Assembly: GCA_040219255.1 (NCBI GenBank)
Contig: JAVJSW010000049.1
Coordinates: 58,067-122,066 of the forward strand
DNA: 64,000 nt
Source of the DNA: Sumerlaeia bacterium
GTDB taxonomy: Bacteria > Sumerlaeota > Sumerlaeia > SLMS01 > JAHLLQ01
Direction: 5' to 3'
This document shows positions 38,701-56,288 of this stretch, piece after piece. The notes beneath the pieces were generated by a model. The model did not search any database. It saw only the letters and a program-made list of their open reading frames with translations, and was not told where the DNA came from. The position numbers and the translations under genes were made by a program. The stretch's first letter is position 1, and the number at the start of each line of letters is the position of its first letter.

Positions 38701-39333
38701 GTCAAGGACAACGCGGCCATCGTGGGTCTGTCGTCGAGCCTCGGCGTGTACTGGGATTTCACCGTCGAAACCGGATTCGCCTTCGGTGGCGAGGTGCTGG
38801 TGACGCTCGAATACCGCGACGGCGAGCTGAACGGCGTGGATGAGAACACGATGACGCTGGTGAAGGCCAACTCGCCGGCCGGACCCTGGCAGCCCGTACA
38901 GATCGTCGAACGCGACACCGTCAACAACACTATCTCCGCCATCGTCACCGGGTTTTCGACCTTTACGGCGACCAACGATACGGTGCTGTGGGTGGACCTG
39001 GTGGCTTTCGAGGCGGAGGATCTGGGTTCGGGCGGCGTGCGTGTGACCTGGGAAACGGCGGCGGAGGTCGATTCCCTCGGCTTCCACATCCACCGCGTGG
39101 CCCCCGATGGCGGGCTGGGCGGGCAAGTCACCTCTGGCCTCGTGCCGGCCACGGGCAGCCCCCTCGGCGGTGCGTTCTACGAAGTCCTGGACAGCGAAGC
39201 GTTGGCCACCGGAGAGAGCCGCGGGTACTTCCTGGTGGAGACGGAGACCTCTGGAAAGACAACCACTTACGGACCCATCACGGTATCCGCCGAAGCGCGC
39301 GAGAGCGCCGTGGAGGATTGGACGATCTTCTGA
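35761..39333 (+). CDS. Secreted multidomain nuclease: Endonuclease I (EndA/Dns family) + fibronectin-III + lamin-tail domain (LTD), 1191 aa.
   Basis: ORF 35686..39333; Met26 begins signal peptide (GPAWAGLLLTGALLMAAGSAWAAP). Endonuclease_1 motifs REHIWPQS and NRNPFIDHPEW. FN3 (SVSLTWNANSEGDLDGYNVYRS...YYYVVTAVD). LTD (FVNEIHYDNDGGDTGEFIEVAGPAGTDLSGWTIVLYNGSS). Confidence 0.85.
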   Translation: MTLGKHRNSDSHAPGGPAWAGLLLTGALLMAAGSAWAAPPANYYDTADTTNGTTLRSSLHNIIDGHTVYSYTAAYDIIADANEDPNNSNNTILFYTGRSTPKTNQGGNDSDPATGGYNREHIWPQSAFNENSPMKSDMHALLPADADANGRRSNYPFHTVTTSTYEFFGNKVDTDNFAAGNIFEPRDAVKGDVARALFYMDVRYEGDSGEPNLALSSSGYPTGTGSALMGYLDELLAWHAADPVDQFEIDRHEYIYGFQNNRNPFIDHPEWVDCVYNNNCSNDTTPPDPPMGLAANGGDGSVSLTWNANSEGDLDGYNVYRSTTMGGPYSQINGALVPAPSYVDNTVTNGVTYYYVVTAVDTANNESNDSTPASATPETGPGLIVAGPMAEPATISSLRTTAFDAPWNFDVTIIDDQANPGADSDPTLISQIVFTPGTGNDFANWTSVLAGARLTDGTHSVNGTVGAAGLTFALTNGLNEIGHIADNGTKTYQLKVWLKESATGVDNGNLVFALASSGIATEAAGSSTVGSSSADSGSTNNAIEVVATELRFASQPPDTIVATDFAASVHATDKYGRRDTDASGNVTLSLDTVNAGILSAAGGLTKALAAGLASWSDLEIDTGEAGVGLLANATGFAEKRSESFDVLPSGGGSGTPVFVNEIHYDNDGGDTGEFIEVAGPAGTDLSGWTIVLYNGSSSLRSPYSPTMNLSGTIPDSTGNGFGFLSFFQAGIQNGDPDGLALVDDSNTLIQFLSYDGSFVAASGIAAGLTSENIGGEPTTTPIGESLQLTGTGSVYEDFTWAASTATNTAGALNGSQTFQPAGGTLNANGVLEFASASRAGSEDGGAIVVSVLRLAGTAGAIAVPFSVGGASTASGADYTIATASPLNFADSDDVQSITINPVVDSDHLEGDETIVLQLGAPTGGAALGAQSEVVVTLLASDRTLIPSGTNPPPLEFAEGVRATVDFNDVSAAGAGFAANLVKDNAAIVGLSSSLGVYWDFTVETGFAFGGEVLVTLEYRDGELNGVDENTMTLVKANSPAGPWQPVQIVERDTVNNTISAIVTGFSTFTATNDTVLWVDLVAFEAEDLGSGGVRVTWETAAEVDSLGFHIHRVAPDGGLGGQVTSGLVPATGSPLGGAFYEVLDSEALATGESRGYFLVETETSGKTTTYGPITVSAEARESAVEDWTIF

Positions 39334-39406: not shown

Positions 39407-39679
39407 GTCTGGGAACGAAGGGCATCAATAATTCCCCAACTTATGCGTTGTCAGAAAGCCGTTCCAAAGAAGGGAATTGCAACTCATTGCCTGCAAGATT
39501 AACCGGCACGGAACATGCCACTTTTCCTTCTTCTGTCATAAAATAAGAGGGAAAGTTCTCATAGGCACTTGACTTTGCCTCTTCCACATGATTTTCTAAC
39601 GTATCTTGTCATTCCCGGTTTTGCCTTGGCTCATCACGCTCGAGCCCGCTTCTCCGGCCTTATCCTGGAGGTTCCCACC

Positions 39680-40900
39680 ATGTCGCCGAAGCCCCTGTCG
39701 TTTGCCAGGAAGTTACTCCTCTGCGCTCTTCTCTGCGCCGCCGCCGTTCCCGCTTCGGCGGGTTACAACGTCTGGACGGACACGACGGTGGCGCCTGGGG
39801 TCGTCTGGAAGAACAAGGTTTACCCCAGCCTCTTTGGCGGCAAACAGACCGTCAACGTCCTGGAGGTGGACCTGACGCATCCGCAGGTGAAGGTCCAGCC
39901 GTTGAAGACCTCCTCGGGCTGCGCCACCACGTCGGCCATCAGCAATGGCTATGGGGCCATCGCGTCGGTGAACGGCGGGTTCTTCGGCGGCTGCTCGTCC
40001 GTTTCCATGATCAAGATCAACAACACGGTCCACGCGACGAATCCGGGCTACAAGCCGGCCCGCGCCACGGTGGGGATCAACCAGGGCGGCGACAGCGCTT
40101 CCATCGCCCGCATCTCGTCGACCGACTCCTGGTCGGCGGTGAACGACGCGCTGGGGGCGGGGCCGAATCTGGTGACGAACGGCAGCCTGGACGTGTCCTG
40201 GTCCGCGGAGGGGTTCGATGCCTCCTATACTTATCGCAACCCGCGCACCGCGGTAGGCCTGAAGAACAACGGCCAGACCATGGTCATGGTGACGGTCGAC
40301 GGCCGCACGTCGGCGGGCGTGGGCATGACGCTCGACGAGTTGGCGACGTACATGACGTGGCTCGGTTGCCAAAGCGCCATGAACCTGGACGGCGGCGGCT
40401 CGACCACCATGTGGGCCTCGGGCAGCGGCGTCGTGAACACGCCGAGCGACGGCTACGAGCGCAGCGTGGTCAGCATCCTGGCGGTCTTCAGCCTGCCCGC
40501 CCCGCTGATCGTGGACAATACCTCTTCGGATTTCACGGCGTCGGCCAATTGGTGGGCCTCGTCTTCGAGCCCAGGCTACTACGGCAGCAACTACCACGTG
40601 CGCGCGACGGCGTCTTCGGGCGACGCGGCGACCTGGAAGGCCAACTTCACCGGCGGCACCTATAAAGTGTATGCGCGCTGGGCGGCGGGGAGCAACCGGG
40701 CCTCGGCGGCTCCCTACGTGATTTACCACGCCAATGGGTCCTCGACCGTTTACAAGAACCAGCAGATCGACGGCGGCACGTGGCAGTTGCTCGGCACGTA
40801 CGATTTCAATGGCGGACTGGGGACTCGGGTGGCATTATCGTGCTGGACCTCCTCGGGTTCGTATGTGGTCGCGGACGCGATCATGTTCGAGAAGCAATAG
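39680..40900 (+). CDS. Secreted phosphodiester glycosidase family protein (NAGPA-like) with golvesin-like C-terminal domain.
   Basis: ORF 39569..40900; Met38 begins signal peptide MSPKPLSFARKLLLCALLCAAAVPASA. AINGGFF...GAGPNLV...MVMVTVDGR...AMNLDGGGSTTMW (phosphodiester-glycosidase pattern). C-terminal SSPGYYGSNY...TYKVYARWAAGSNRASAAPY.IYHANG...GTWQLLGTYDF (golvesin C-terminal-like). Confidence 0.7.
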   Translation: MSPKPLSFARKLLLCALLCAAAVPASAGYNVWTDTTVAPGVVWKNKVYPSLFGGKQTVNVLEVDLTHPQVKVQPLKTSSGCATTSAISNGYGAIASVNGGFFGGCSSVSMIKINNTVHATNPGYKPARATVGINQGGDSASIARISSTDSWSAVNDALGAGPNLVTNGSLDVSWSAEGFDASYTYRNPRTAVGLKNNGQTMVMVTVDGRTSAGVGMTLDELATYMTWLGCQSAMNLDGGGSTTMWASGSGVVNTPSDGYERSVVSILAVFSLPAPLIVDNTSSDFTASANWWASSSSPGYYGSNYHVRATASSGDAATWKANFTGGTYKVYARWAAGSNRASAAPYVIYHANGSSTVYKNQQIDGGTWQLLGTYDFNGGLGTRVALSCWTSSGSYVVADAIMFEKQ

Positions 40901-40956
40901 CCCACCGAGGCATTCCGCAAAGTTCGGTCATGGCGCCCGCCCCCACCGGCCCGCCA

Positions 40957-40995
40957 TCGCATCCATCCGGCCCGCGTTCTTGCCGCGCGGGCCGG
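40957..40995 (+). terminator. Putative rho-independent terminator: CCGGCCCGCG-loop-CGCGGGCCGG then ACGTTATTTTGG.
   Basis: 10-bp perfect GC stem followed by a T-rich run, ~55 nt after the preceding stop. Confidence 0.45.
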
Positions 40996-41246
40996 ACGTT
41001 ATTTTGGTCCGGGCCCCTCCGCCCGCTCTCCCGATGGATCCCCCAATTCAGTCAACGGCTTTACCCGCCAACTGGAAAGATTCGCCGCCTTTGGGCTGGA
41101 CACGGAGGGGGCGGGCGGCGCTTGTAAGCCACTAAACTCAGCCAGCTTGTGTTGGGTGCAACCGGTTGCGTGTCCTGTCAGCACCAGACCGGCCCCAACA
41201 CCACGACGAAACCGCTGGCGATTACTCCGAGGGAGACTCGACGACC

Positions 41247-42602
41247 ATGAATGTTTGCGTGATCGGAACGGGCTATGTGGGCCTGGTTACGGGGGCGGTA
41301 TTCGCCGATTTGGGCAATGATGTGATCTGTGTGGATATGGACGAGCGCAAGGTCGCCCTGCTCCAGAACAACGTGATGCCCATCTACGAGCCCGGCCTGG
41401 AAGAAATCGTTCGCAAGAGCCAGGAAGACGGCCGGATCAGCTTTACCACCAACACCGCGGAAGCCGTTCGCAAATCCAAGGTGGTCTTCATCGCCGTGGG
41501 TACGCCGCCGGCCGCCGACGGTTCGACGAACCTGTCCTTTGTGGAGGGCGCCGCCCGCGACATCGCCCGCGCCATGGTCGACTACACGATCGTGGTCAAC
41601 AAGTCCACGGTGCCCGTGGGCACCGGCGACTTTGTCCGCCGCACCATCTCCCAGGAACTCGAAAAGCAGGGCCGCAGCCTCGAGTTCGACGTCGTGTCGA
41701 ACCCCGAATTCCTCCGCGAAGGCTCCGCCATCAAGGACTCCCTCGAACCCGACCGCATCGTGATCGGCGCGCCGACGCAGAATGTGGCGATGGCGCTCCT
41801 CGAGCTTTACGCCCCCCTCGAACGCCCCATGCTGATCACCGACGTGTACAGCGCCGAACTGATCAAGTACGCTTCGAACGCTTTCCTGGCCACCAAGATC
41901 AGCTTCATCAACATGGTCGCCAACGTGTGCGAGCAGGTCGGCGCCGACGTGACCTTGGTTTCCAAGGGCATGGGCTTCGACAAGCGCATCGGCCGCGAGT
42001 TCCTCAACGCCGGCCTCGGCTACGGCGGCTCCTGCTTCCCCAAGGACGTGGACTCGCTGAACCACAAGATCAAGGATCTGAAGGAAGACTCGGGGATCCT
42101 GGACGCCGTGACGCGGATCAACGCCGACCGCACACCGCGCTTCATCCGCCGCATCAAGGAAATCGCCGGCGGCGTGTCCGGCAAGCGCATCGCCCTCTGG
42201 GGCCTGGCTTTCAAGCCTGACACCGACGACATGCGGGAAGCCAAGAGCGTGGAAGTGATCCGCGCGTTGGTGAACGACGGCGCGGAAATCGTGGCCTACG
42301 ATCCCATCGCCATCGAAAAGTCGAAGGAAGTGCAGCCCCCGCTGCCCAAGATCGAGTACGTGGACAATGCCTATGACGCCGCCAAGGGCGCCGACGCTCT
42401 GGTGATCATGACCGAGTGGAACGAATTCAAACTCGTCAACCTCGAGCGCCTGCACGACCTGATGAAGACGCCGTTGATTTTCGACGGCCGCAACATCTAC
42501 CCGGTCGAGCGCATGGCCCGCATGGGCTTCGACTACGTCAGCATCGGCCGCGCCGCGACGCTGGAAAACAGCGAAGCCGCCAAGCAGCCGGCGGCAGTCT
42601 AA
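41247..42602 (+). CDS. ugd: UDP-glucose 6-dehydrogenase.
   Basis: ORF 41166..42602; Met28. MNVCVIGTGYVGLVTG (Rossmann). Catalytic GYGGSCFPKD. C-terminal UDP-binding domain. Confidence 0.9.
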   Translation: MNVCVIGTGYVGLVTGAVFADLGNDVICVDMDERKVALLQNNVMPIYEPGLEEIVRKSQEDGRISFTTNTAEAVRKSKVVFIAVGTPPAADGSTNLSFVEGAARDIARAMVDYTIVVNKSTVPVGTGDFVRRTISQELEKQGRSLEFDVVSNPEFLREGSAIKDSLEPDRIVIGAPTQNVAMALLELYAPLERPMLITDVYSAELIKYASNAFLATKISFINMVANVCEQVGADVTLVSKGMGFDKRIGREFLNAGLGYGGSCFPKDVDSLNHKIKDLKEDSGILDAVTRINADRTPRFIRRIKEIAGGVSGKRIALWGLAFKPDTDDMREAKSVEVIRALVNDGAEIVAYDPIAIEKSKEVQPPLPKIEYVDNAYDAAKGADALVIMTEWNEFKLVNLERLHDLMKTPLIFDGRNIYPVERMARMGFDYVSIGRAATLENSEAAKQPAAV

Positions 42603-42637
42603 GAGGCGGTGGACAGCAAGTCATCCTGGATCGCAGA

Positions 42638-43432
42638 ATGCTGAGAACACTTGTCGAGCGAGCCACTCGCAGCAGCGTATTCCGCAGGCGATTGCCTTCG
42701 GCGCTCGGGGGGGCTCGCTTTTTCGTTTCCGCCTCCGCTGGCCTCGGCTACCTGTTCCGCCCCGTTGAAAGGATCGATCCCGCACTCTGTGCTCTGGCCA
42801 GGGAATTCGTCCACACCGATTACGTCGTTTGGGACGTCGGCGCCAACGTAGGGCTGTTCTCCTTCGCGGCGGCTCACCTTGCCGGACCCAATGGCCGTGT
42901 TTGCTCAATCGAACCCGACCTCTGGCTCGTGCAACTGCTCAGGCGTTCGGCGTCTCAACAGCCCTCCACGTCCGCACCGGTGCAGGTCGTTCCATCCGCT
43001 GTAGCGGGGGCCTGTACCCTGAGGACGCTCAACATAGCAACCCGTTCACGAGCCACAAACTGTCTCTCGGGATACGGTTCAACGCAGATGGGAGGGGTCG
43101 CTGAGCAGCAAACCGTGGTGACCGTAACTCTCGACTGGCTTGCGGAATTCCTGCCCCCGCCGGATCTGGTCAAGATCGATGTGGAAGGGGCTGAACTCGA
43201 AGTTCTCCGAGGCGCGGTCAATCTGCTCAGCAGCAATCGACCCATCTTCCTGTGCGAGGTCTGCTCAGAGAATTTTGTCCCTCTGACGTCGCTCTTCCGA
43301 GAATGCGGCTACCGAGTCTTTGATGGCGAAGAACCCGCTGAGCAACGGCAAGAGCTTGACGTGGCCCGCTGGAGTACCATCGCGATTCCCAACTCATCAA
43401 CGCCACCTGCGGACAGCGCCACCGAAGCGTAG
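42638..43432 (+). CDS. FkbM-family SAM-dependent methyltransferase.
   Basis: ORF 42416..43432; Met75. VWDVGANVGLFSF...KIDVEGAELEVLRG...IFLCEV (the FkbM pattern V-D-(I/V)-G-A-N-x-G plus KIDVEG-E-x-VL). Confidence 0.75.
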   Translation: MLRTLVERATRSSVFRRRLPSALGGARFFVSASAGLGYLFRPVERIDPALCALAREFVHTDYVVWDVGANVGLFSFAAAHLAGPNGRVCSIEPDLWLVQLLRRSASQQPSTSAPVQVVPSAVAGACTLRTLNIATRSRATNCLSGYGSTQMGGVAEQQTVVTVTLDWLAEFLPPPDLVKIDVEGAELEVLRGAVNLLSSNRPIFLCEVCSENFVPLTSLFRECGYRVFDGEEPAEQRQELDVARWSTIAIPNSSTPPADSATEA

Positions 43433-43482
43433 GCATCGGAGTCGCCAGCCCCACCGCACTTCTGTGTGGCAAGTGTTCGGAG

Positions 43483-44781
43483 CTACGCCGGCTTGGCCGC
43501 CTGCTCGTCCAAGCCCTCTTCCACTTCCTCCATCTTTTCCGCAGCCGCGCCCGGCGTGATGCTGAGCTTCGCCGCGTACCAGAGGCCGATCACCGTGACC
43601 AGAATCCATTGCAGGAAGTGGATCACGAGGGTGAAGCCGAGGCCGAGAGCCTGCTCTTCGGGGGAGTCGCCGATGGCACCGACCATGATGAGGGCCAGCA
43701 GGCCGCCGACCTCGTAGAGCCCCCAGTAGCCCGGCGCCGCCGGAATGGCGATGGCGATGCAGGTGATGATCAGGAACGCCATGGATTGAACGAAGGTCAG
43801 TTCCAGTTCGGGAAAACCGAAGGCCATGATCCAGATGGTCGCGCCGGTGGCGATCCACACGCCGACGCTGTGGAAGATGAGAATCGCCAGCATCCTGGGG
43901 CTCTTGAGGGCGTCGAAGCCTTCGGCGAAATGGCGGAAGAGTTCGCCGATCTTTTCTTTGAACTTGTGGGGCAGGAGCGGAATCGCCATCACAATCCGCA
44001 GCACCAGGTTGCGCACCGGGTCGAAGAGCATGGCGATGACGCCCACGATCAGGACGATGACGAAGGGCACGAGCTTCATCGCCCCGCTCTGGATACCGGC
44101 GGGGCTGATGGTGCCAGAGCTGCCGAGGGTGAAGTCGCGCCCGCCGGGGATGAAAAGGGCGGCGGCCACACCCGCCAGCGCCAGCGCCCCCGCGGCCACG
44201 TAGCAGGGCGCCGGGGCTTTGTCGTTGCCCTTCGCGCCGAGGGTGCGCCCCAGCAGGAAGAGCCCGCCGGCCGCCAGAACCCCCAGCCCCAGCAGCAACC
44301 ACCGCAGCGGCAGCGTCATGGTGGCGTCGTAGTCCTTGGAAAAGTCGGAGTCGAATTGCAGTAGCAAGGGTGCCAGCGCGAACAACCCGAGCAGCGTGAG
44401 CGAGTCGAGGACGCGTTCGACGAACACGGTGGACAATCCAGCGGGGAAGGGCACGCCGGCCGAGCGCCGCAGGGCCAGGGGGCGGGCGGCCTCGCCCGCG
44501 CGGCCGGGGACGACGCTGTTCAACCCAAAGCCGACCATCAAGGACTGATAGGCCGGGTAGAAGGGAACTTTTTGCTTGGGCGCGAGGAGCAATTGCCAAC
44601 GCCACACACGCCAGACAAAGGTCAACCAGGTGACCACCACGAACGGGATCGCCCACCACCAATTGGCTGTCTTGAGCGTGTCCCAGAGCATGGCGAATTC
44701 GATCTGGCGAAAGGCCAGCCAGAGGAAAAAGCCGCTGAGGAGCAGCGCGATCGCCAGAGAGATGATTTTCTTTGCAGGCAT
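43483..44781 (-). CDS. Flippase-like domain / lysylphosphatidylglycerol-synthase-TM-like (UPF0104) membrane protein.
   Basis: ORF 43483..44865; Met29 begins MPAKKIISLAIALLLSGFFLWLAF. About 8 TM helices. FVWRVWRWQLLLAPK...SLMVGFGLNSVVPGRAGE matches the UPF0104 N-terminal block. Confidence 0.7.
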   Translation of the reverse strand: MPAKKIISLAIALLLSGFFLWLAFRQIEFAMLWDTLKTANWWWAIPFVVVTWLTFVWRVWRWQLLLAPKQKVPFYPAYQSLMVGFGLNSVVPGRAGEAARPLALRRSAGVPFPAGLSTVFVERVLDSLTLLGLFALAPLLLQFDSDFSKDYDATMTLPLRWLLLGLGVLAAGGLFLLGRTLGAKGNDKAPAPCYVAAGALALAGVAAALFIPGGRDFTLGSSGTISPAGIQSGAMKLVPFVIVLIVGVIAMLFDPVRNLVLRIVMAIPLLPHKFKEKIGELFRHFAEGFDALKSPRMLAILIFHSVGVWIATGATIWIMAFGFPELELTFVQSMAFLIITCIAIAIPAAPGYWGLYEVGGLLALIMVGAIGDSPEEQALGLGFTLVIHFLQWILVTVIGLWYAAKLSITPGAAAEKMEEVEEGLDEQAAKPA

Positions 44782-44932
44782 GAGAAGGGCGTTTCGCTCC
44801 GAGCGAAGAGAATAATCCGCGGCTAATGGCGGGTTCCGTTCTGCTTGGCAATCTCCGCGCCGCAACGGGAATCCCGGCCGGGCCCGATGGGTTTACCCAA
44901 TTTTCACCACGGAGACTCGGAGGCACGGAGCA

Positions 44933-45574
44933 ATGAGAGAAAACCCCCAGATTGTTCTGACCGCCATGGGCGATGGCCTGGCGGGGGCGTGGAACCGATG
45001 GTGCGGGGATTTGCCCGGCGTCGAGGTTTGGCGCCGTTCGATCCTCGATTGCGCCTGCGACGCCGTCGTCAGCCCGGCGAACAGCTTTGGCTTTATGGAC
45101 GGCGGGATCGACGGGATTTACCTCGATCACTTTGGCCGGGGGGTGCAGGATCGCCTGAGGGCCGCCATCCTGACGCGGCACGACGGTGAGCTTCTCGTCG
45201 GTCAGGCGGAGATTGTCCCCAGCGGCGACGAGGCGATTCCCTGGCTGATCGCCGCGCCGACGATGCGCGTGCCGATGGCGCTGCGCGAGAGCGTCGCGCC
45301 CTACCTGGCGGCGCGGGCGGTACTGCTGCTTTGGAAGAATGGCACCAACCCCGCCACGGGCCGCCTCGTGCGCGAAGACATCCGCACCATCGCCTTCCCC
45401 GGCCTCGGCACCGGGGTCGGCCGCATCGGCCCCCAGACCTGCGCGCGCCAGGTCCGCCAAGCGATCGAGGACGTCCTCCACCGACCCGCCCAGCTCCCGC
45501 GTTCCTGGGCCGAAGCCAGCGAACGCCACCAACTCCTCTATACCGACCGCCCCCGGAACCTGCAGCGGGATTGA
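44933..45574 (+). CDS. Macro-domain protein (ADP-ribose binding / O-acetyl-ADP-ribose or mono-ADP-ribosyl hydrolase type).
   Basis: CDAVVSPANSFGFMDGGIDG...(I/V)AFPGLGTGVGRI. Gly-rich phosphate-binding loops characteristic of macro domains. Confidence 0.7.
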   Translation: MRENPQIVLTAMGDGLAGAWNRWCGDLPGVEVWRRSILDCACDAVVSPANSFGFMDGGIDGIYLDHFGRGVQDRLRAAILTRHDGELLVGQAEIVPSGDEAIPWLIAAPTMRVPMALRESVAPYLAARAVLLLWKNGTNPATGRLVREDIRTIAFPGLGTGVGRIGPQTCARQVRQAIEDVLHRPAQLPRSWAEASERHQLLYTDRPRNLQRD

Positions 45575-45698
45575 GCGCGCCCGGGCCGAGCGAAAAAGTG
45601 AAAACGAACACGCACCACCCGCCCCGCCCCGGCGTCCTTGGAGGGTGACGGGGGTCACATACGCCCCCGCAGCCGACATCCCACAGAAGGCAAAGACA

Positions 45699-47090
45699 AT
45701 GTCCGTTCTCGACGATGCCGAACTGGTCCAGCGCACCCGCCGGGGCGACCGCCGCGCGATGGAGAAGCTGATCGAGCTTCACTACGCGGGGGTTCTCGCC
45801 GAGGGGCGCAAGATCCTCAAGGACGAGGACGCGGCGGAAAACCTGGCACAGGAGGTTTTCCTCCGCGCCGCTCTGAATCTGGAGACCTTACGCGAGGACC
45901 AGAAATTCGGGGGCTGGGTGCGGACCATCGCCCGCAACCTGGCCCGCACCTGGAAACGCTCGGAAACCCGCACCTCGCGCCTCGCCCGCCAAATCTTGCT
46001 GGAGGACTCCGCCATGGAAAACATCGCCGACACCACCCCCTCGGCCCCGGAACGGCTGGAGGAAGTCGACCGGCTGAGTCAGCTTCGCCAAGCCCTCGAA
46101 GGCCTGGAGCCGGACGAACGCGACGTGATCCTGCGGCATTTCTTTCAGAACGAAAGCCAGCGCGACATCGGGCGCGAGCTGGGCGTCCACCACACCACGA
46201 TCTCGAGGCGGATTCAGGGGGCCCTCGGCAAACTGAAAACCTTCCTCACGCCCGGAGAGCCCGCGTTCTCCGGCCCCCAGAAGGCCAAGGTCCTCTGCGC
46301 CGCCGCGCTGGCGCTGCCCGCCGCGAAGAAAAGCGCCGTCGCCGGCGAGATCGCCCGGGAAACCGCCACCCTGTCCCTGCCCCCCTGGATGTCGGCCATC
46401 CACCCCCATTTCGCGGCCACCGCCGCCGGAGTTATCGCTATGAACACCACCCAGAAAATCGTCGTCGCAGCCATCGCCGCCGCCCTCCTCGTCGGAGGCA
46501 CCGTCGCCACAAAAGCCACCACCGGTTCCCCAGGCTCCGCCCTCTTCGCCTCCGCCGCCGCCCCGTCGGAAACCATAGACATCGCCATGGGCGGGGAAGT
46601 CACCGTGGACATCGCCTTTGGCGAGACCAAACGCCTCGCCCTCGATTCCATCGCCGGATTGCCGGCCTTCGCCCAGGAACACATCGCGGATTTCCAGACT
46701 ATCGACCTGACGGCCCGGGAGAACGGCACCATCGAAGCTCGCCTGGTCAAAGCCGATGGCAGCGTCCTGGAACAGACGCTGTACACGTCGGCGCGCGACA
46801 CCGCCCAGGCCACCAACGTCCACGTCTGGGAGGAAATGGGCCTGCTCCTGATCGTCAGCGCCGCCATCCGCCAAACGCCGACTGGTATGCAGGTGAATTA
46901 CTTCAAGGTCAACCGGCCGGACCTGTTGCCCGCGGTGAAGAACCTGGAGCGGCTGGCGGAGGAGGGCCGCCTGTCGCCCTACGAAGCCCGCATGCGCACC
47001 GAGAAGCTGATGGCGGACAACGGCCTTTTCCCGCAGGACGCGGAGAACCGCGAGTTGGTTCGGCGGCTGGTGAGCGGGTTCTTCGATTGA
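45699..47090 (+). CDS. ECF sigma-70 family factor (sigma2 + sigma4) fused to a single-pass TM segment and ~270-aa C-terminal extracytoplasmic domain.
   Basis: ORF 45339..47090; Met121 MSVLDDAELVQRTRRGDRRAMEKLIELHY (region 2.1/2.2), AQEVFLRA, ...DERDVILRHFFQNESQRDIGRELGVHHTTISRRIQ (region 4 HTH). Then KIVVAAIAAALLVGGTVA (TM) and a non-repetitive C-terminal domain with no stop in between. Confidence 0.75.
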   Translation: MSVLDDAELVQRTRRGDRRAMEKLIELHYAGVLAEGRKILKDEDAAENLAQEVFLRAALNLETLREDQKFGGWVRTIARNLARTWKRSETRTSRLARQILLEDSAMENIADTTPSAPERLEEVDRLSQLRQALEGLEPDERDVILRHFFQNESQRDIGRELGVHHTTISRRIQGALGKLKTFLTPGEPAFSGPQKAKVLCAAALALPAAKKSAVAGEIARETATLSLPPWMSAIHPHFAATAAGVIAMNTTQKIVVAAIAAALLVGGTVATKATTGSPGSALFASAAAPSETIDIAMGGEVTVDIAFGETKRLALDSIAGLPAFAQEHIADFQTIDLTARENGTIEARLVKADGSVLEQTLYTSARDTAQATNVHVWEEMGLLLIVSAAIRQTPTGMQVNYFKVNRPDLLPAVKNLERLAEEGRLSPYEARMRTEKLMADNGLFPQDAENRELVRRLVSGFFD

Positions 47091-47163
47091 GCCAATTGGG
47101 GTGAGAATCGGGAACGTCTCCCGGCAGCGATGCCGGGAGCGGGTCTTTGGAAAGGCGTGCGAA

Positions 47164-48375
47164 TTAGCGTTCGCCGAGGCCGACGAGGGCGTAGATGCTG
47201 GGCGCCAGGGCGAGTTGGACTTCCTGCTGAACGGACGGGAGTTGATTTTCCAGGGCGCGGGGGTCGTCGGTCACCATGGCGGCCTCCGGTTCGGCGAAGA
47301 CCATCCAGTCGCGCTCGACCTCGGTTCGCGGATCGCCCATGAAGAACTGGGTGAGGATGTTGCGCTCGGTCAGGTTCTGGGCCAGGTAGGGATCGCGCCG
47401 CATGCGGATGTAGACCTCGCGGGCGGCCTGCGTGTCGCCCGAGGAAACCAGGGCGTCGATCAGCTTGGAATAGGCGGTATAGGCCAGGGGGTGGCTGGGG
47501 TAATCGAAGGTGAACCGGCGAAGCTGCTCGACGGCGGAGGCGACGTAGCTCTTCACTTCTTCTTCACTGGCGCGGACGGCGGCGGCGAGATCGCCCATCG
47601 CGAGTGTGAGCAGGGCGTAGGGCCTGAGGGCGGCAGCGGGAGTTTCCTGGGCGATGCGCTCGAGCGGGCCCCGATGGCTGGGATCGAGGAGCGCGAGATT
47701 TTGAAGCGACAGAAAAACTTCCGGGTCCTCGATCCATTCGAGAGCTTTCTTGTCATCGCCGCTGGCGGGCGTCACGTCATACGAAAAGACACCGAGGTCC
47801 TGATAGGTGGCGGTGGCGCCATCGGCGTCTTCGAAGCAGTAGAGGGCGGTGGCCATGCGATAGGCGCCGGCGGTATCGGAGAGAGCGCCCGACAGGCTGT
47901 CGTGATCGTAGGCGAGGATCTGGACGCGGCTGACCCGCTGGTCGTACTCCAGGCTGGTGCCGACGCGTTGGTTGCGGCGGATCAGGGGGTCTTTCACTTC
48001 GAAGGGAGCGATGCCGAGGCTTTGGTCGGGAACGACGACGGCGCGAAAATCCGACCCCAAAGTCAAGGCGCCGGTGAACTCGGCGGGGCGGCCTTTCGCA
48101 TCGCCTTCGACTTGCAACTCGATGAGGAGCGGTTCGCCCTGGGACGCCGAGGGCGTCAAGAGGCGGGCGCGGCGCAGGACACCGTTGCACCGGACGGCGT
48201 CGAGGTATTGGGGCGCGGAGGCGGGGTTGGCGTAGGCGGGCGGAACGGCGGACTGTGCCTGGGCGAGTGCCGGAGCCGCGGAAAGAAGGCCCGCCAGCGC
48301 CAGACCACAAGCGGTCCAGCGGTTGCTAAAGGTGGGATTTGGGGAGATGAAAATCCGCGAAAGTCGCCGCATCAT
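47164..48375 (-). CDS. Hypothetical secreted protein (~400 aa).
   Basis: ORF 47164..48435; Met21 begins MMRRLSRIFISPNPTFSNRWTACGLALAGLLSAAPALAQAQ (signal). No motif recognised. Confidence 0.55.
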   Translation of the reverse strand: MMRRLSRIFISPNPTFSNRWTACGLALAGLLSAAPALAQAQSAVPPAYANPASAPQYLDAVRCNGVLRRARLLTPSASQGEPLLIELQVEGDAKGRPAEFTGALTLGSDFRAVVVPDQSLGIAPFEVKDPLIRRNQRVGTSLEYDQRVSRVQILAYDHDSLSGALSDTAGAYRMATALYCFEDADGATATYQDLGVFSYDVTPASGDDKKALEWIEDPEVFLSLQNLALLDPSHRGPLERIAQETPAAALRPYALLTLAMGDLAAAVRASEEEVKSYVASAVEQLRRFTFDYPSHPLAYTAYSKLIDALVSSGDTQAAREVYIRMRRDPYLAQNLTERNILTQFFMGDPRTEVERDWMVFAEPEAAMVTDDPRALENQLPSVQQEVQLALAPSIYALVGLGER

Positions 48376-48473
48376 AAGTTGGCCGTCAGTTTCCGTGAAA
48401 GAGTCGGGCGCGATGGCAAAAGGTTGCCGCGCCATGCACCCTCACCGGACTCGAATCGCCCCGGCGGGGTTTG

Positions 48474-49121
48474 CTAGGGGCGATTGGGCTCGAGGATCAA
48501 CTGCCCCGACAGATCCCGGCGCGCTTTGCGGGCCAGGTCCTCGAGCACTCCCAGTTGGGACGTGAACCAGTCCGTGTCCTGGCCGGACCAGCGCCACACT
48601 TCGTCGCCGCTTTGGACTTCGACGAGGGAGAGTTCCAGATCCGCTTCGCTCTTCCAGGTGTGGAGAGTTTTGTCATGGACCGTGCGCGATTCGCCGACTT
48701 GGCTGCTGAGGACGTAATCGACGTTGAGCGCGCGGCCGTAGTCGAGGGGGTCCTGCATTTGGAGGACGACGAGTCGTTCCTCCGGGGTCAGGCCCGGGTA
48801 GATTTGATTCAGGACGCGCTCCTTGGAAGCCATGAAGGCGGTCAGGTCGGTGCGGGAATAGACCTGGACGCCGGGGATGCGGCCGAATTCGCGGGCGAGG
48901 GCTTCGCCGGCCAGGACGCCGGCGTTGCCACTGTCGTAGCGGTCGCGGGCGGAAAGCCACCATCCGGCGGTGGACTTGCGGGTTTCGCCGTTTTCGACGC
49001 GGGCATCGAGCACCGCCATGGTAACCAGGCCATCGGTGGCTGGCATTTTGCGCGCGCAGCCGGACGTCAGGGCCACCGCCATCAGACAGAACGCGAGAAA
49101 AAGAAATCCACTGGGCCGCAT
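48474..49121 (-). CDS. Hypothetical lipoprotein (lipobox LTSGC).
   Basis: MRPSGFLFLAFCLMAVALTSGCARK: type II signal peptide with an invariant Cys. 215 aa. Confidence 0.6.
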   Translation of the reverse strand: MRPSGFLFLAFCLMAVALTSGCARKMPATDGLVTMAVLDARVENGETRKSTAGWWLSARDRYDSGNAGVLAGEALAREFGRIPGVQVYSRTDLTAFMASKERVLNQIYPGLTPEERLVVLQMQDPLDYGRALNVDYVLSSQVGESRTVHDKTLHTWKSEADLELSLVEVQSGDEVWRWSGQDTDWFTSQLGVLEDLARKARRDLSGQLILEPNRP

Positions 49122-49235
49122 CTCGGACGATATTCCTCATCGCTGGAAATGATGGGGCGGATCGGGTCCACCATCCGGGCCCATAGGGAACCAGGGGCCC
49201 CGCAAGCGTCAAGCGCGGTCGCGGCGCCAGGGGGA

Positions 49236-49268
49236 TACAGAAAACCGCCCCGGAGGATTCCGGGGCGG
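49236..49268 (-). terminator. Putative rho-independent terminator on minus strand (CCGCCCCGG-AATCCTC-CGGGGCGG then TTTTCTGTAT).
   Basis: GC-rich 8-9-bp stem plus T-tract, ~70 nt downstream of the 49334 gene stop on the minus strand. Confidence 0.5.
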
Positions 49269-49333
49269 GGGTCCATGCTCTCAAGCGGGCTCGCGCTGGG
49301 GAGGTGTGGTTCCCATCACCGTCTCACGACGGT

Positions 49334-51019
49334 TTACTGCATGACGACGGAGAAGGAGCTGTGTTGACCGTCTTCCGTGACAGTCTTGCTGGTCACGATG
49401 TTGCCCATGCCGCGGACAATATCGAGGCCCTTGAACATCGCTTCCATGTCGTCGGGCTGCATGCCGGCGCCCACGAACTGGGCAAGGAGGGGCGAGGCGA
49501 TGTCGACGATGCGCTTGAGGTTGACCTGGCTGTACTGGTGGGCTTCGCCAGGGATGTTGCCGCTGGCGGAGGACCAGGCGGCGCCTTCGAAGAGCCCGCC
49601 GTCACCGGCCTTGGCCGCCTTCAGCGCCCCGCGCAGGCTTTCAACGTTCGGCCCGATGACGACGGTGCCGTCTTCAGTCATGGCGTGGAAGAGGCCGAGC
49701 GGCATGCCCATGGCGCCGGGAGCGATAATCGAGCGCACTTCAACGCCCTCGATGGTCTGCACCTGCGGCGTGACGGCGACACCGCCGCCCTGCTGCGCGA
49801 AGACTTGAGCGACGTTGCTCTCCAGCTTCGACATGACGGCCTTGGCCTGGTCCTTGTTCTTGGATTGGGCGACGATGGTCAGGTCGATCTGGGGCATGAA
49901 GCCCATCAGGGCAAAGTCGTTGAAGAAAATGCCGGTGTCGGGGCCAAAGGCGGAGAGCACCTCGTCGGCCTTCATGCCGAGCATGGCTTCGATCTGCTGG
50001 ACGCCCTGCTTCACTTCCGGAGTGGTGGTGGGCGAATTGAGGGACTTTTTCACGGTTTCGCCGTCGAAGAGGTTCGTGACGGTGGCGAAGAGGGCGTCGT
50101 TGGCGGCGAACTCCGCCAGTTTGTCGAAGTTCGAGGTTTCCTGGGCGGCGTAGTTGTCGATGAGGGACTTCATCTGCGAGCCCTCCTCGACGCCGACGAA
50201 GGACTTGCCGTCGATGCGGGACTCGCCGAAGTTCATGACGGCGGCGATGTCGTCGGGGATCATGGACTTGGCTTCGGCCAGTTCGGGGCGCGCGGCCATG
50301 AGAGTTTCGATCAGCGCTTTGCTGGCGAACATGGAGAAATGACCATCCATGCCGACGTTTTCGAAGGCCTTTTTGATGCGTTCGTTTTCCGCCAGGGTGT
50401 TGCCGGTGGAGGTGATGGAGCTGGACAGGGCGCCCATGGAGGAGGAAGCGATGAGAATTTCGCCCATGCGGGTGGCGTGAACGCCGTCGCCGCTGAGGCT
50501 GTAGGTCTTGGTGCCGCTCACTTCGTTTTCGGCGACCATCTCCGCTTCGGCGACGCCTTGACCGGCCATGGCGGCTTTGGATTGCTTGAGGAGGTGCTGG
50601 AGCATCGCTTCAGCGTGCTCCTCGGAGTCGAAGTCGGCGACGATGACCATGGCTTGGTTGTCGGTCATGTAAAGGTCGACGCCCTGGAGGACTTCGCCGA
50701 GGAACTGATCGGGCTTGAGGCTGTACCCCAACTCGAGTTCGGCTTTGTCCATGTTGAGGAGGAAGTCCTGGAACTCGGGGGAATTCTTGACGGCGTTGAG
50801 GGCGAGGAGTTCGCCGAGGCGGGCGGCGACGGGGGACTTGCCGAAGCCTTGCCACATTTCGTTCGTGTCATTGATGCTGACGAAGGCCTCGACACCAGAG
50901 GGAACGCGGTCCGGAACGGCGACTTCCTGGGCCGCGGCGGTCAGGGGCAGAGTGAGAGCGAAAACCGTCGCGACGGCGAAACGCCGGGTGTGGCGCGAAA
51001 AGCGGGATCTGAGAGTCAT
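49334..51019 (-). CDS. Hypothetical secreted protein (~560 aa).
   Basis: ORF 49334..51103; Met29 begins MTLRSRFSRHTRRFAVATVFALTLPLTAAAQE (signal). Uniform codon usage. No catalytic motif recognised. Confidence 0.6.
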   Translation of the reverse strand: MTLRSRFSRHTRRFAVATVFALTLPLTAAAQEVAVPDRVPSGVEAFVSINDTNEMWQGFGKSPVAARLGELLALNAVKNSPEFQDFLLNMDKAELELGYSLKPDQFLGEVLQGVDLYMTDNQAMVIVADFDSEEHAEAMLQHLLKQSKAAMAGQGVAEAEMVAENEVSGTKTYSLSGDGVHATRMGEILIASSSMGALSSSITSTGNTLAENERIKKAFENVGMDGHFSMFASKALIETLMAARPELAEAKSMIPDDIAAVMNFGESRIDGKSFVGVEEGSQMKSLIDNYAAQETSNFDKLAEFAANDALFATVTNLFDGETVKKSLNSPTTTPEVKQGVQQIEAMLGMKADEVLSAFGPDTGIFFNDFALMGFMPQIDLTIVAQSKNKDQAKAVMSKLESNVAQVFAQQGGGVAVTPQVQTIEGVEVRSIIAPGAMGMPLGLFHAMTEDGTVVIGPNVESLRGALKAAKAGDGGLFEGAAWSSASGNIPGEAHQYSQVNLKRIVDIASPLLAQFVGAGMQPDDMEAMFKGLDIVRGMGNIVTSKTVTEDGQHSSFSVVMQ

Positions 51020-51148: not shown

Positions 51149-52327
51149 GTGCGCGCACTGACGATTCTAGGCTCAACAGGCAGCATCGGGACCCAGGCGC
51201 TCGATGTCGTTCGGGCGTTTCCTTCACAGTTTCAGGTTCTCGCGCTGGCGGCGGGGAGCAATCTGGAACTGTTCCGGCGGCAAATCGCCGAGTTCCAGCC
51301 GGCCTTCGTGACTCTGGCGAATCGCCAGGGGGCCGAAATTCTGGCATCGGAATTGGCGGGAACAGGGACGAAATTGCTCAGTGGCCCGGACGCTCTCACG
51401 CGGCTGGCGGCGGAGGTCCCGGCCACCATGGTGCTGGCCGCCACGGTGGGATGGACGGGGGTGGAGCCGGTTCTGGCGGCCATCGCCGCGGGGCGCGACA
51501 TCGCCCTGGCGAACAAGGAAGTGCTGGTGTGCGCGGGGGATCTGGTGATGGCCGCGGCAAAAGCCCACGGCGTGGCCATCTATCCGGTGGACAGCGAGCA
51601 CAACGCCATCATGCAGTGCCTGGCGGCGAGCGGCCCAGGGGCGGCGCCTCTGAGGCGCTTGATCCTGACGTGCAGCGGCGGAGCGTACCGCAACGCCTCG
51701 GCGGAGGAAATCGCCCTCGCCGGTTGGGAGCGCACACTGGACCACCCGACCTGGGACATGGGGCGCAAGATCACCGTGGACAGCGCGACGCTGATGAACA
51801 AGGGCTTCGAGGTGATCGAGGCGCACCATCTTTTTGGTGTGCCAATGGAAAAAATCCAGGTGGTCATCCACCCGCAAAGCATCGTCCACAGTCTGGTGGA
51901 ATTCGCCGACGGCAGCATGATGGCTCAGATGGGCCGCACGGACATGCGGCTGCCGATCCAGCACATTCTGACCTATCCGGACCGGCGGCCGACGACGCTT
52001 GAGCCGTTGGACTTGACGGAGGTGGGGTGCCTGGACTTCTTGAAACCCGACCTTGGGCGCTTTCCGTGCCTGGCCATGGCGTACGAAGCGGCTCAGCGGG
52101 GCGGGACTCTGCCCTGTGTCCTGAACGCCGCCAACGAGATCGCCGTTGCCGCGCACCTGGGCGGCCAGATTCCGTGCGGAGGGATTCCGGAGTTGATTCG
52201 CCAAGTCCTGGACGCCCACGAAATCCAGCCCGCCGCAAGCCTCGACACACTGCGGGAGGCCGACCGCTGGGGCCGCGAGGCAGCCCGGGCCGTTCTGGCC
52301 GGGATGAACGCGGCGCCTCGCGTCTGA
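51149..52327 (+). CDS. dxr: 1-deoxy-D-xylulose 5-phosphate reductoisomerase (Dxr/IspC).
   Basis: GTG start. LTILGSTGSIGTQALDV (NADPH Rossmann). LANKE. Metal and substrate residues HPQSIVHSLVEF.DGS..AQMG. Confidence 0.9.
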   Translation: MRALTILGSTGSIGTQALDVVRAFPSQFQVLALAAGSNLELFRRQIAEFQPAFVTLANRQGAEILASELAGTGTKLLSGPDALTRLAAEVPATMVLAATVGWTGVEPVLAAIAAGRDIALANKEVLVCAGDLVMAAAKAHGVAIYPVDSEHNAIMQCLAASGPGAAPLRRLILTCSGGAYRNASAEEIALAGWERTLDHPTWDMGRKITVDSATLMNKGFEVIEAHHLFGVPMEKIQVVIHPQSIVHSLVEFADGSMMAQMGRTDMRLPIQHILTYPDRRPTTLEPLDLTEVGCLDFLKPDLGRFPCLAMAYEAAQRGGTLPCVLNAANEIAVAAHLGGQIPCGGIPELIRQVLDAHEIQPAASLDTLREADRWGREAARAVLAGMNAAPRV

Positions 52328-52527: not shown

Positions 52528-54162
52528 GTGTTTCTCGACCTCTTAGCTCAGGCTGCCGCGGAAGCCCCCGCCGCCGAACCGTTTCTGTCCCGTGTGGGCA
52601 GCTTTCTTGTGGGACTGCTCGGCTTCGTGACAGCCTTTGGCCTTGCCGTTTTCATCCACGAACTGGGGCATTTCCTGGCCGCCAAGGCTTTCAAAGTCCC
52701 CGTCGAGCGCTTCGTCATCGGTTTCGACCGCGAGGCCATGCCGTTCATGCCCAAGTGCATTTGGGAACGGACTTATGGCGAGACGACCTATGGGCTGTCG
52801 CTGATGCCGCTGGGCGGGTACGTCAAGATGGCCGGCACGATCCACCCCGACATCGAACGCTATATCGACGGCGACGCCCCGAAAGAAGGCGAGCTGACGG
52901 AAACGGACGCGGCGGGTCTGGAAGTGCTGACCCACGCCACGCCCTCGAAGCAGCAGCCGGCCGAGGCGGACACCGATACGGACAAGCCGGCTTCGCTCTC
53001 AGAGCAGGCGCTCCAGGATCAGGCGGCGCTTTACAAGAAGCCGTTCTGGCAGAAAACGATCGTTTATGGCGCGGGCGTCACGATGAACATGCTCCTGGCT
53101 ATGGTCATCGTGACGATCATGCTGGTGAAGGGCGAAAAAATCGACAAGCCGCTGCCGGCCGTCGTGGCCTGGCAGAGTCCCAACAGCGCCTTGGTACAGC
53201 AGGGTCTCGAGCCCGGCGACCGCATCGTCTCGATTCACGGCACCCCGGTTTCGACGGACCGGGAGGTCTACGAAGTCTTGGGGAAACTGGCCAACCCGAC
53301 GGTGATCGAGGCCCCCGGGTCGGACGTCAACGAAGGGACCACGATCACGGTGACGATTGGCCTGGACCGCGGCGGCGAGCAGTTGACGAGAACGGTGGAC
53401 TATCACACGGCGGAATTCTTCGGTGAGGACGCGTTGATTTCCCGCCCCGCCAGCGTCGAATACGTGGTGCTCTACGAACCGGCGAGCAAGGGCGGCGTGA
53501 AGGAAGGGGACTTGATCCTGGAGGTGGAAGGAACGCCGGTCCAGGACTGGTTCCACCTGGTGCACCTGATCAGCCAGTCGGCGAACGAAGATATGTCGTG
53601 GATCGTGCGGCGCAAGGATCAGGACGCACCGATTCAACTGACGGTGACGCCTCGCGAGGAAGAGATCGAACGCCCCGGCCTGGACCCCGTCGTGGTGGGC
53701 CGCGTGGGGATTCAGTATGGCGCGCTGGAAAAGGAAGTGGCGAAAGTCGGTCTGGGCGAGGCGATCCTGATCGCGCCGGGCCAGATCGTCCGCATGACGA
53801 AGGGCTATTTGTCGAACCTGGGGCGGCTGGGCAAGAACCTGGCCCAGGGCGACGTGCAGACCGTGCGGCGCGAGTTGGGCGGCCCGGTGGCTATCGGCCA
53901 CATGGCGGGGCACCACGCCAACCTGGGGCTCGACCGTTTTCTGCAATTCATGGTGATGCTGAACATCGCGCTGGCGGTGATGAACCTGCTGCCGCTGCCG
54001 GTGCTCGATGGCGGGCACATTGTGCTGGCGGGCTACGAGGCAGTGGTGGGCAAGCCGGTGCCGCCGAAGATCCTGGTGCCGATTTTGAATGGGGCGGTGA
54101 TTTTCCTGCTGGGTTTCGTGCTGCTGGTTTCCTTCAGCGATTTGCTGAAGATTTTCAGTTAG
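52528..54162 (+). CDS. rseP: RseP-type site-2 protease (M50 zinc metalloprotease with PDZ domains).
   Basis: HELGHFLAAK (HExxH within TM1). Two PDZ-like segments. C-terminal LDGGH motif (NLLPLPVLDGGHIV). The start is GTG at 52528 or possibly ~52594. Confidence 0.85.
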   Translation: MFLDLLAQAAAEAPAAEPFLSRVGSFLVGLLGFVTAFGLAVFIHELGHFLAAKAFKVPVERFVIGFDREAMPFMPKCIWERTYGETTYGLSLMPLGGYVKMAGTIHPDIERYIDGDAPKEGELTETDAAGLEVLTHATPSKQQPAEADTDTDKPASLSEQALQDQAALYKKPFWQKTIVYGAGVTMNMLLAMVIVTIMLVKGEKIDKPLPAVVAWQSPNSALVQQGLEPGDRIVSIHGTPVSTDREVYEVLGKLANPTVIEAPGSDVNEGTTITVTIGLDRGGEQLTRTVDYHTAEFFGEDALISRPASVEYVVLYEPASKGGVKEGDLILEVEGTPVQDWFHLVHLISQSANEDMSWIVRRKDQDAPIQLTVTPREEEIERPGLDPVVVGRVGIQYGALEKEVAKVGLGEAILIAPGQIVRMTKGYLSNLGRLGKNLAQGDVQTVRRELGGPVAIGHMAGHHANLGLDRFLQFMVMLNIALAVMNLLPLPVLDGGHIVLAGYEAVVGKPVPPKILVPILNGAVIFLLGFVLLVSFSDLLKIFS

Positions 54163-54165: not shown

Positions 54166-55158
54166 TCAGCGCCGCACCTTCAGGTATCGCCGGGCGGCGG
54201 CTTCGTAGGCCAGCGGGCTGAGCCAGCGAATCGGCGCGATGGTGGAGAGCACGCCGGCGGTGTTTGTGAGGGAGGGATTGACGGCCTGGGCCTTGCGGAA
54301 TTGCTCGCGGGCGAGGGACCAGTTGGACTCGAGCCCGGCGTAGAAGGCGGCCATCTGATGGCAGCGGGCATAGCGGGACTGGACGCGCCGTTCGCCAAGA
54401 CGCTCGGCCAGTACGGGATGGCGTTCGAGGAGTTGTTCGAGCCCGCGGCGGGTTTCCTCGTATTGCTCGGCCCGGCGCGGAGCGGCGGCCATGGAGGTGT
54501 TGTTGCCATGCCGGCGCCAGCGGCCCAGCTCGCGGTCGCGCAGGCAAATGGCCGGGCCGACAAGGCCCAGTTCGATCCACTTGAGATAGTCGGTGTTCGG
54601 CCCCGGCCCCCAGAACGGGCCGCTTCGCCGCCAGGCTTCCTTGCGGAACATGACCGAGATGGCGGGGACGAAGCAGTAGTTGGCGAAGAGTTCGGAGGCG
54701 AAATCGCCCTCGACCGGGGGGTAATTGTCGAAGTGGGTGCCGAGGCGCCGCTCATCGTCGTCGATGGCTTCGGCGTTTCCATAGACCATGCTGGCTTCTG
54801 GATTGGCGTCGAGGGCCTCGACTTGCCATTCGGTGCGTTGGCGCGGGAGGAGATCGTCGGAGTCGACGATGCTGACATAGGGGGCGCGGGTCATTTCCGT
54901 GCCGCGATTGCGGGCGGCGACGACGCCGCGGTTTTCTTGACCAAAGGCGCGAATGCGGGGGTCGCGGCGGGCGTAGTCTTCTGCCACCGAGAGGGTGCCA
55001 TCGCGCGATCCATCGTCGACGACGACGATCTCGAAGTCCTGGATCGTCTGATCGAGAATCGAGTCGAGCGTCGCGCCGATATAGCGCTCGTGATTGTAGG
55101 AGGCGATGACGAAGCTGACGCGGGGGACCGGGGGCAATTCATCGCTGGGGAGCGCCAT
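54166..55158 (-). CDS. Glycosyltransferase family 2.
   Basis: ORF 54166..55218; Met21. VSFVIASYNHERYIGATLDSILDQT...IVVVDDGSRDGT...VSIVDSDDLL (DxD). Confidence 0.8.
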   Translation of the reverse strand: MALPSDELPPVPRVSFVIASYNHERYIGATLDSILDQTIQDFEIVVVDDGSRDGTLSVAEDYARRDPRIRAFGQENRGVVAARNRGTEMTRAPYVSIVDSDDLLPRQRTEWQVEALDANPEASMVYGNAEAIDDDERRLGTHFDNYPPVEGDFASELFANYCFVPAISVMFRKEAWRRSGPFWGPGPNTDYLKWIELGLVGPAICLRDRELGRWRRHGNNTSMAAAPRRAEQYEETRRGLEQLLERHPVLAERLGERRVQSRYARCHQMAAFYAGLESNWSLAREQFRKAQAVNPSLTNTAGVLSTIAPIRWLSPLAYEAAARRYLKVRR

Positions 55159-56286: not shown

Positions 56287-56288
56287 AG

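Follow-up and report, generated by a model that had tools for sequence, protein, structure and literature searches.

We analysed a window of 64,000 nucleotides (nt) from a Sumerlaeia bacterium (assembly GCA_040219255.1, contig JAVJSW010000049.1, positions 58,067 to 122,066 of the forward strand) and describe here a gene within it that encodes an extracytoplasmic function (ECF) sigma factor joined, in a single reading frame, to a transmembrane (TM) helix and an extracytoplasmic domain. Positions refer to the window unless another locus is named. The gene and the parts of its product are the following.

45699..47090, + strand: fused ECF sigma / TM / extracytoplasmic-domain gene, stop codon included, 463 amino acids (aa)
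45768..45974, + strand: Sigma-70 region 2, residues 24-92 (PF04542, Sigma70_r2, E 9.5e-12)
46080..46238, + strand: Sigma-70 region 4, residues 128-180 (PF08281, Sigma70_r4_2, and PF04545, Sigma70_r4, E ~2e-9)
46248..46454, + strand: cytoplasmic Ala-rich linker, residues 184-252 (~65 aa), conserved family-wide; candidate built-in anti-sigma or pro-sigma segment
46455..46514, + strand: single TM helix, residues 253-272 (Kyte-Doolittle and Hessa scales)
46515..46568, + strand: low-complexity Ala/Ser/Pro/Gly stalk, residues 273-290 (family alignment), variable in length, predicted local distance difference test score (pLDDT) below 50
46569..47087, + strand: folded extracytoplasmic domain, residues 291-463 (~175 aa), modelled by AlphaFold2 as a nine-stranded beta-sandwich followed by three helices

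The mechanical open reading frame (ORF) spans 45339..47090 (+), and translation from the ATG at 45699 gives the 463-aa product. Since the N-termini of the orthologues align at this methionine and a conserved promoter-like motif, described below, sits inside the upstream extension of the ORF, the ATG at 45699 is, as judged from these alignments, the true start of the gene. The protein is 100% identical to an NCBI entry annotated as RNA polymerase sigma factor [Sumerlaeia bacterium], from a metagenome-assembled genome. The initial annotation, made from the DNA letters alone, had taken residues 1-190 for a complete ECF sigma factor, and this was borne out: regions sigma2 (24-92) and sigma4 (128-180) are present and no other sigma region (sigma1, sigma3) was matched, which is the pattern of ECF (group 4) sigma-70 factors, and the NCBIfam model TIGR02937 (sigma70-ECF) scores 90.9 bits against a cutoff of 42.9. 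Sequence matches in the PDB are to ECF sigmas only (AlgU/SigH, SigW, SigE, SigL, RpoE and CnrH), with alignments that stop near residue 184. The best NCBIfam subfamily, TIGR02989 of the Rhodopirellula/Verrucomicrobium family, scores 73.6 bits and stays under its cutoff of 124.55, and none of the subfamily or equivalog models shown reaches its cutoff for the 463-aa protein. The sigma gene has no separate anti-sigma gene beside it, and the earlier suggestion that the sensor or anti-sigma function is carried on the same chain is plausible.

In the relatives P0002-P0006, at 28-46% identity, one uninterrupted frame likewise encodes the sigma domain, the linker, the TM helix and the C-terminal domain, in agreement with what had been read from the single sequence. 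When 1.84 billion representative proteins were searched exhaustively by phmmer with residues 186-463 as the query, 22 relatives emerged; almost all are 445-533 aa long, and the C-terminal part is matched at the same relative position. Sigma70_r2 and r4 are both found in 20-21 of the 25 family sequences, the remainder being short sequences of 195-352 aa. As the uninterrupted architecture recurs in about 20 full-length sequences, drawn from independent NCBI, JGI, ENA and Logan assemblies, the fusion is by this comparison real, and a frameshift between the sigma and TM parts, which the initial annotation had asked to be checked, is excluded. A word-index profile search with an alignment of the C-terminal domain gave no match, which we attribute to a limit of the index, given the relatives found by phmmer. 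Patterns of the sigma core retrieved 80 loci from metagenome contigs, all of them generic ECF sigmas that match residues 1-190 only, and a C-terminal profile hidden Markov model run against six-frame translations of those 80 loci detected no new family member. All members that carry an organism name belong to Candidatus Sumerlaeia. Membrane-tethered ECF fusions are known, as the initial annotation held, and constitute a minority design (PMC8999054, PMC7826278, PMC5411451); the family described here is a small, undescribed, phylum-restricted group within the known sigma/membrane-regulator design.

What follows the sigma core had been taken for one domain of ~270 aa. That it includes an extracytoplasmic domain was supported and its size was not, as the segment is made up of a linker of ~65 aa, the TM helix, a stalk of ~20 aa and a folded domain of ~175 aa. 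In the family alignments the linker holds a conserved helix, KxLxAAxxALPxAAR, and varies in length from 60 to 100 aa, and a conserved juxtamembrane motif, G-x-x-A-M-T/S-x-x-Q-K, precedes the TM helix. Residues 253-270 (KIVVAAIAAALLVGGTVA) reach a Kyte-Doolittle 19-mer maximum of 2.01, and 253-272 is the best segment on the Hessa scale in every member (insertion free energy, dG, -0.5 to +4.0) and the sole TM-like one, so that the topology check proposed at the outset, run here with these two hydrophobicity scales, returns a single segment. The outer end of the helix carries G-x-G plus an aromatic residue, the Gly pair being present in nearly all members. A second TM helix within the linker (198-216, Kyte-Doolittle 1.3-1.8 in some members), which would make the C-terminal domain cytoplasmic, was considered and rejected on a Hessa dG of 4.7-8.5 in every member, a judgement made with hydrophobicity scales and not with a dedicated topology predictor. 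Because there is one TM helix and the sigma domain belongs in the cytoplasm, the C-terminal domain would lie outside, and we infer an N-in/C-out topology.

The C-terminal domain had been described as resembling nothing recognisable, and it still does: no family of Pfam or NCBIfam was matched by any of 24 C-terminal domains, and the PDB offered no convincing structure. In a sequence profile search of the PDB the sole match was marginal, to a designed immunoglobulin domain (E 5e-4), and Foldseek found no PDB structure at E <= 1e-3, with TM-scores of 0.25 or less. AlphaFold2 modelled the C-terminal 181 residues from a 24-sequence alignment with a pLDDT of 92.8 and a predicted template modelling score (pTM) of 0.86. 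The full-length model, built from 6 sequences, has a pLDDT of 68.8, with ~85 in the C-terminal part and less than 50 at residues 228-285. Compared against Pfam, NCBIfam and the PDB, the modelled fold of the ectodomain is previously undescribed. The conserved motifs of the domain are QxWxExNL, NRPxLLP, GxIS and LPxDPxNR.

Upstream of the start codon lie three further elements.

45591..45608, + strand: A-rich tract immediately 5' of the -35-like element, a candidate UP-like element
45612..45636, + strand: ECF-type promoter-like motif GCACCAC-N12-GGCGTC, with the -35-like element at 45612-45618 and the -10-like element at 45631-45636, 62 nt before the ATG
45643..45674, + strand: GC-rich stem-loop in the predicted 5' leader, core stem 45649-45655 / 45663-45669, fold -20 kcal/mol, z = -2.55

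When the 300 nt that precede the gene were compared between the window and four orthologous loci, a single common block emerged, A[C/T]GCACCAC-N12-GGCGTC(CTTGG), embedded in flanking DNA that is not conserved. The exact GCACCAC-N12-GGCGTC occurs once in the 64-kb window and once per locus in the five exact loci, always upstream of the sigma gene. Seven further family loci, fetched afterwards as an independent test, all carry the motif at a spacing of 12 (13 in L212), so that it precedes the sigma gene in 12 of 12 family loci, exact in 5 and with 1-2 mismatches in 7, at 48-92 nt from the ATG. Matches with up to two mismatches at spacing 12 number ~12 per 128,000 window positions against 5.2 in shuffles, and their chance rate is estimated at ~0.02-0.03 per 200-nt region; by this estimate, matches in 7/7 test loci far exceed the chance expectation. 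An A- or T-rich run is found at the place of the A-rich tract in most of the 12 family loci, as read from the upstream sequences.

The element is not the one that had been anticipated. A promoter of the GGAAC-N16-17-CGTT kind had been suggested, and no GGAAC-N16-17-CGT-type promoter was found in front of the sigma gene or of the genes around it; what is conserved instead is GCACCAC-N12-GGCGTC. ECF promoters have a GAAC-N16/17-CGTC geometry, which the motif, read as GCAC-N17-CGTC, resembles. Its position suggests positive autoregulation of the sigma gene from its own motif, and on the simplest reading this would imply that the sigma domain is functional. Other near-matches in the window, such as 50996-50972 inside the signal-peptide coding region of a 561-aa gene, occur at roughly chance level, and no near-match elsewhere in the window sits in promoter position. 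A search for a regulon in genome contigs with the 18-base form GCACCAC-N12-GGCGTCCTTGG was set aside, as it gave at least 120 matches, apparently by chance and in unrelated high-GC genomes; among the matches listed, none encodes a family member.

The stem-loop starts ~12-14 nt past the -10-like element. Stem-loops of differing sequence were predicted at the same offset in 7-8 of the 8 loci folded (z -0.6 to -4.75), and the structure is seen in L001, L002, L003, L006, L127, L129 and L210-L213, in the last four of which it is visible by eye. Pairing is kept despite the change in sequence (GGGGG/CCCCC, GGCGCC/GGCGCC, GCGGGC/GCCCGC). Such a leader structure could stabilise or regulate the mRNA.

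Based on these data we propose, with a probability of about one half, that the protein is a one-chain transmembrane transducer, an IutY-like sigma/anti-sigma hybrid that is freed by regulated intramembrane proteolysis. At rest, the sigma domain would be held inactive at the inner membrane and perhaps also be masked by the conserved helix of the linker. A periplasmic cue acting on the C-terminal domain would lead to trimming of that domain, upon which an RseP-type site-2 protease (S2P) would cut inside the membrane, and the freed sigma would join core RNA polymerase and start transcription at GCACCAC-N12-GGCGTC promoters, its own among them, thereby creating positive feedback. Established here are how the domains are arranged and that this arrangement is conserved, along with the conserved promoter-like motif and the existence of an RseP gene. 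The topology, release by proteolysis, the part played by the linker, the signal and any regulon beyond the gene itself are what we infer. The proposal of release is made by analogy with IutY-type hybrids, as IutY is released by Prc and RseP (PMC5411451), and a proteolysis model has also been proposed for the TM-containing extensions of ECF48/52/53 (PMC8999054). A protease of the kind that such release would need is encoded in the window.

52528..54162, + strand: candidate RseP-type site-2 protease, Peptidase_M50 (PF02163, E 1.6e-47) plus PDZ matches

Substrates of RseP and other S2P enzymes have helix-destabilising features in the TM segment, and the weakly hydrophobic, Gly-containing TM helix would fit this description.

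Several observations weigh against this proposal. The linker has neither an HxxxCxxC zinc-associated anti-sigma (ZAS) motif nor a match to FecR, RskA or any other Pfam family, and AlphaFold2 predicts its helices at low confidence (pLDDT 40-68). The TM helix of the 463-aa protein is only marginally hydrophobic, at a Hessa dG of +2.4. No candidate for a site-1 protease was identified, and motif searches of the window and of the upstream regions of the neighbours found no regulon member besides the sigma gene itself. Nor does the position of the RseP-type gene speak for a dedicated partner: it is directly preceded by dxr (51149..52327) and is not conserved beside the sigma gene in other loci. RseP after dxr is a common gene arrangement in bacteria, and the position is probably the usual one and not specific to the sigma factor.

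Could the sigma factor act while still tethered to the membrane, in the manner of ToxR or CadC? The periplasmic domain would then exert control through conformational change or oligomerisation and no cleavage would take place, the flexible linker of 60-100 aa allowing the sigma domain to reach RNA polymerase and DNA at the membrane. The length, Ala-richness and variability of the linker would suit such a mode of action, as would the lack of a recognisable anti-sigma domain and the fact that neither a site-1 protease nor a cleavage motif was identified. Yet a literature search found no precedent for a sigma factor that acts while tethered, the groups with TM-containing extensions that are discussed in reviews, ECF48/52/53 and ECF243/IutY, have been placed under proteolytic activation (PMC8999054, PMC5411451), and the Gly pair in a weakly hydrophobic helix may be a feature of the type that marks S2P substrates. 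We regard action in the tethered state, the main rival to our proposal, as unlikely.

A bolder view, which we hold to be more doubtful still, is that of a Sumerlaeia-specific family of single-chain sigma factors with a truly new periplasmic sensor fold, controlled without an anti-sigma domain through tethered action or a new linker switch and driving an adjacent GspG-like pseudopilin gene in several lineages. The genes in question are the following.

L001 9472-10083, + strand: GspG-like gene, co-directional with the sigma gene, 1-nt gap
L212 7537-8121, + strand: GspG-like gene, co-directional, 60 nt after the sigma gene
L003 9345-9965, - strand: GspG-like gene, convergent with the sigma gene

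In an all-against-all BLAST of six loci this pilin-like gene is the only one to recur, the contexts being otherwise unrelated. A prepilin/pseudopilin gene of this kind (PF07963, N_methyl) adjoins the sigma gene in 3 of 8 informative loci, and the three proteins are orthologous, at 42-59% identity. In the two co-directional loci the gene is probably co-transcribed with the sigma gene. The 64-kb window itself has no N_methyl motif. In L003 (10182-11111) and L212 (10764-11747) a MoxR-type AAA ATPase gene (AAA_3/AAA_5) is located within 1-3 kb of the sigma-pseudopilin pair, and in L212 a BlaR1/BlaI-like pair (Peptidase_M56, Penicillinase_R) is situated between the sigma-pseudopilin pair and the MoxR gene.

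The genes on either side of the sigma gene in the window had given rise to a further idea, namely that an upstream macro-domain protein and the sigma factor form a regulatory unit that ties ADP-ribosylation signalling to the tethered sigma, with three convergent secreted proteins as its regulon. The elements next to the sigma gene are these.

44933..45574, + strand: macro-domain protein, 213 aa (PF01661, 37.4 bits against a cutoff of 22, residues 46-172)
47118..47139, no strand assigned: hairpin CTCCCGGC-AGCGAT-GCCGGGAG between the convergent stop codons, read from the sequence; possible bidirectional terminator

The macro-domain gene does lie immediately upstream, its domain being confirmed by PF01661, on the same strand and at a gap of 124 nt from the sigma ATG, and the three convergent ORFs with signal-peptide-like N-termini, as read from their translations, do exist at 47164..51019. 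This proximity is all that favours the unit. No macro gene was found within 6-8 kb of the sigma gene in any of the seven other loci with enough flank to be informative (L001, L002, L003, L006, L127, L210, L212), so that the co-occurrence that had been proposed as a check does not hold, and tblastn with the macro protein and the three convergent proteins against L001, L002, L003, L006 and L127-L129 detected no homologue. Moreover, the gap holds a conserved promoter-like motif that belongs to the sigma gene itself, and a search upstream of the macro gene and the three convergent genes found no motif of the GGAAC type and no copy of the family motif, even with up to three mismatches. As the context is not conserved and the motif is absent upstream, both the ADP-ribosylation link and the convergent-gene regulon are, on the sequences compared, unsupported, and the unit is very improbable. 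Least credible of all, to the point of being negligible, is that an ordinary ECF sigma gene and a distinct gene for a membrane anti-sigma were joined by a missed stop or frameshift of sequencing or assembly: for it speaks only the general risk in metagenome-assembled genomes, against it the same architecture in ~20 independent full-length sequences at 28-46% identity from different samples and assemblers, and a C-terminal module whose occurrences are nearly confined to proteins of 445-533 aa, where its relative position is constant.

The macro protein scores far under the cutoffs of all NCBIfam equivalog models. The hairpin is a perfect 8-bp GC-rich stem between the sigma gene and the 423-aa gene that converges on it, and a consensus terminator scan did not call it, the T-run being absent. 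The middle convergent gene, 48474-49121 (-), encodes a 215-aa protein that has a lipoprotein-like N-terminus (…VALTSGC…) and resembles, weakly and below threshold, the penicillin-binding-protein activator LpoB (TIGR02722, E 0.007). The neighbours that were scanned comprise an LPG_synthase_TM protein, the macro protein, the three unknowns, Dxr and RseP. Farther out, 39569-44865 and 54301-57620 are rich in envelope and polysaccharide genes, among them those for a NAGPA/Golvesin_C protein, a UDP-glucose dehydrogenase, an FkbM-type methyltransferase, an LPG_synthase_TM-family membrane protein and an ABC-2/Wzt-type exporter pair, and at 35686-39333 (+) a 1215-aa protein with Endonuclease_I and Calx-beta domains is presumably a secreted nuclease.

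An ECF sigma factor that carries its own regulator is a signalling device in a single protein, attractive as a compact orthogonal switch and for learning how bacteria monitor the state of the envelope. The present family contributes a sensor domain without known relatives, a candidate promoter, GCACCAC-N12-GGCGTC, and some 25 sequences of a candidate phylum, Sumerlaeota, that has hardly been studied. On present evidence neither the link to ADP-ribosylation nor the regulon of adjacent genes is worth pursuing.

Among the systems described, IutY of Pseudomonas putida (ECF243) comes closest in design. Its single chain likewise starts with a cytoplasmic ECF sigma and leads through one TM helix to a periplasmic domain at the C-terminus, it has no separate anti-sigma gene, and its activation, by Prc trimming and then RseP cleavage (PMC5411451), is the mechanism that we propose here. 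Unlike the Sumerlaeota protein, whose periplasmic fold is unrelated and unclassified, IutY has an extension of the FecR anti-sigma type, which acts together with a TonB-dependent receptor and has aerobactin as its cue. Neither FecR nor DUF4880 was matched in the 463-aa protein or the 25 family members, and no TonB-dependent receptor was found among the scanned neighbours. Since it lacks both a FecR domain and a TonB-dependent receptor partner, the Sumerlaeia protein is, by its sequence features, IutY-like in design and yet outside the IutY-type (ECF243) sigma/FecR family.

The ECF48/52/53 groups, exemplified by SCO4117 of Streptomyces coelicolor, share the long C-terminal extension with TM and extracytoplasmic parts, the lack of a separate anti-sigma and the proposed activation by proteolysis (PMC8999054, PMC5826349). 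In those groups, however, a zinc-finger (ZAS-like) domain precedes the TM helices, and ECF52 adds a Pro-rich region and a carbohydrate-binding domain, whereas the 463-aa protein has a single Cys (C200), no HxxxCxxC, no zf-HC2 match and a different ectodomain. It shows no match to SnoaL or TPR and possesses a TM helix, which sets it apart from the soluble extensions of the ECF41/42/56/294 type. In RpoE/RseA and SigW/RsiW, the canonical pairs, the ECF sigma has a separate single-pass anti-sigma factor that regulated intramembrane proteolysis inactivates. With these the proposed mechanism would share a sensor that spans the membrane and silences the sigma until it is cleaved at site 1 and site 2, and a sigma gene that is autoregulated, here putatively, from a promoter of the ECF type whose -10 element is CGTC-like. 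The differences are that sigma and sensor form one chain here, so that cleavage would leave the linker on the sigma and not release it from a partner, and that the -35-like element is GCACCAC as opposed to the common GGAAC.

Closer to the family itself stand three proteins, P0007, P0010 and P0016, which were not matched by the C-terminal domain search. They share with it the ECF core, an Ala-rich linker, a motif of the A-M-T/S-x-x-(Q/R/K)-K type and then a Gly-containing TM helix, and differ in that their C-terminal domains are unrelated, that of P0016 being PF22599 and those of P0010 and P0007 other unknown domains. In P0012 and P0017 an HxxxCxxC zinc-finger stands before the TM helix. The likeness in these sequences suggests a modular sigma-anchor chassis to which differing sensor domains have been attached.

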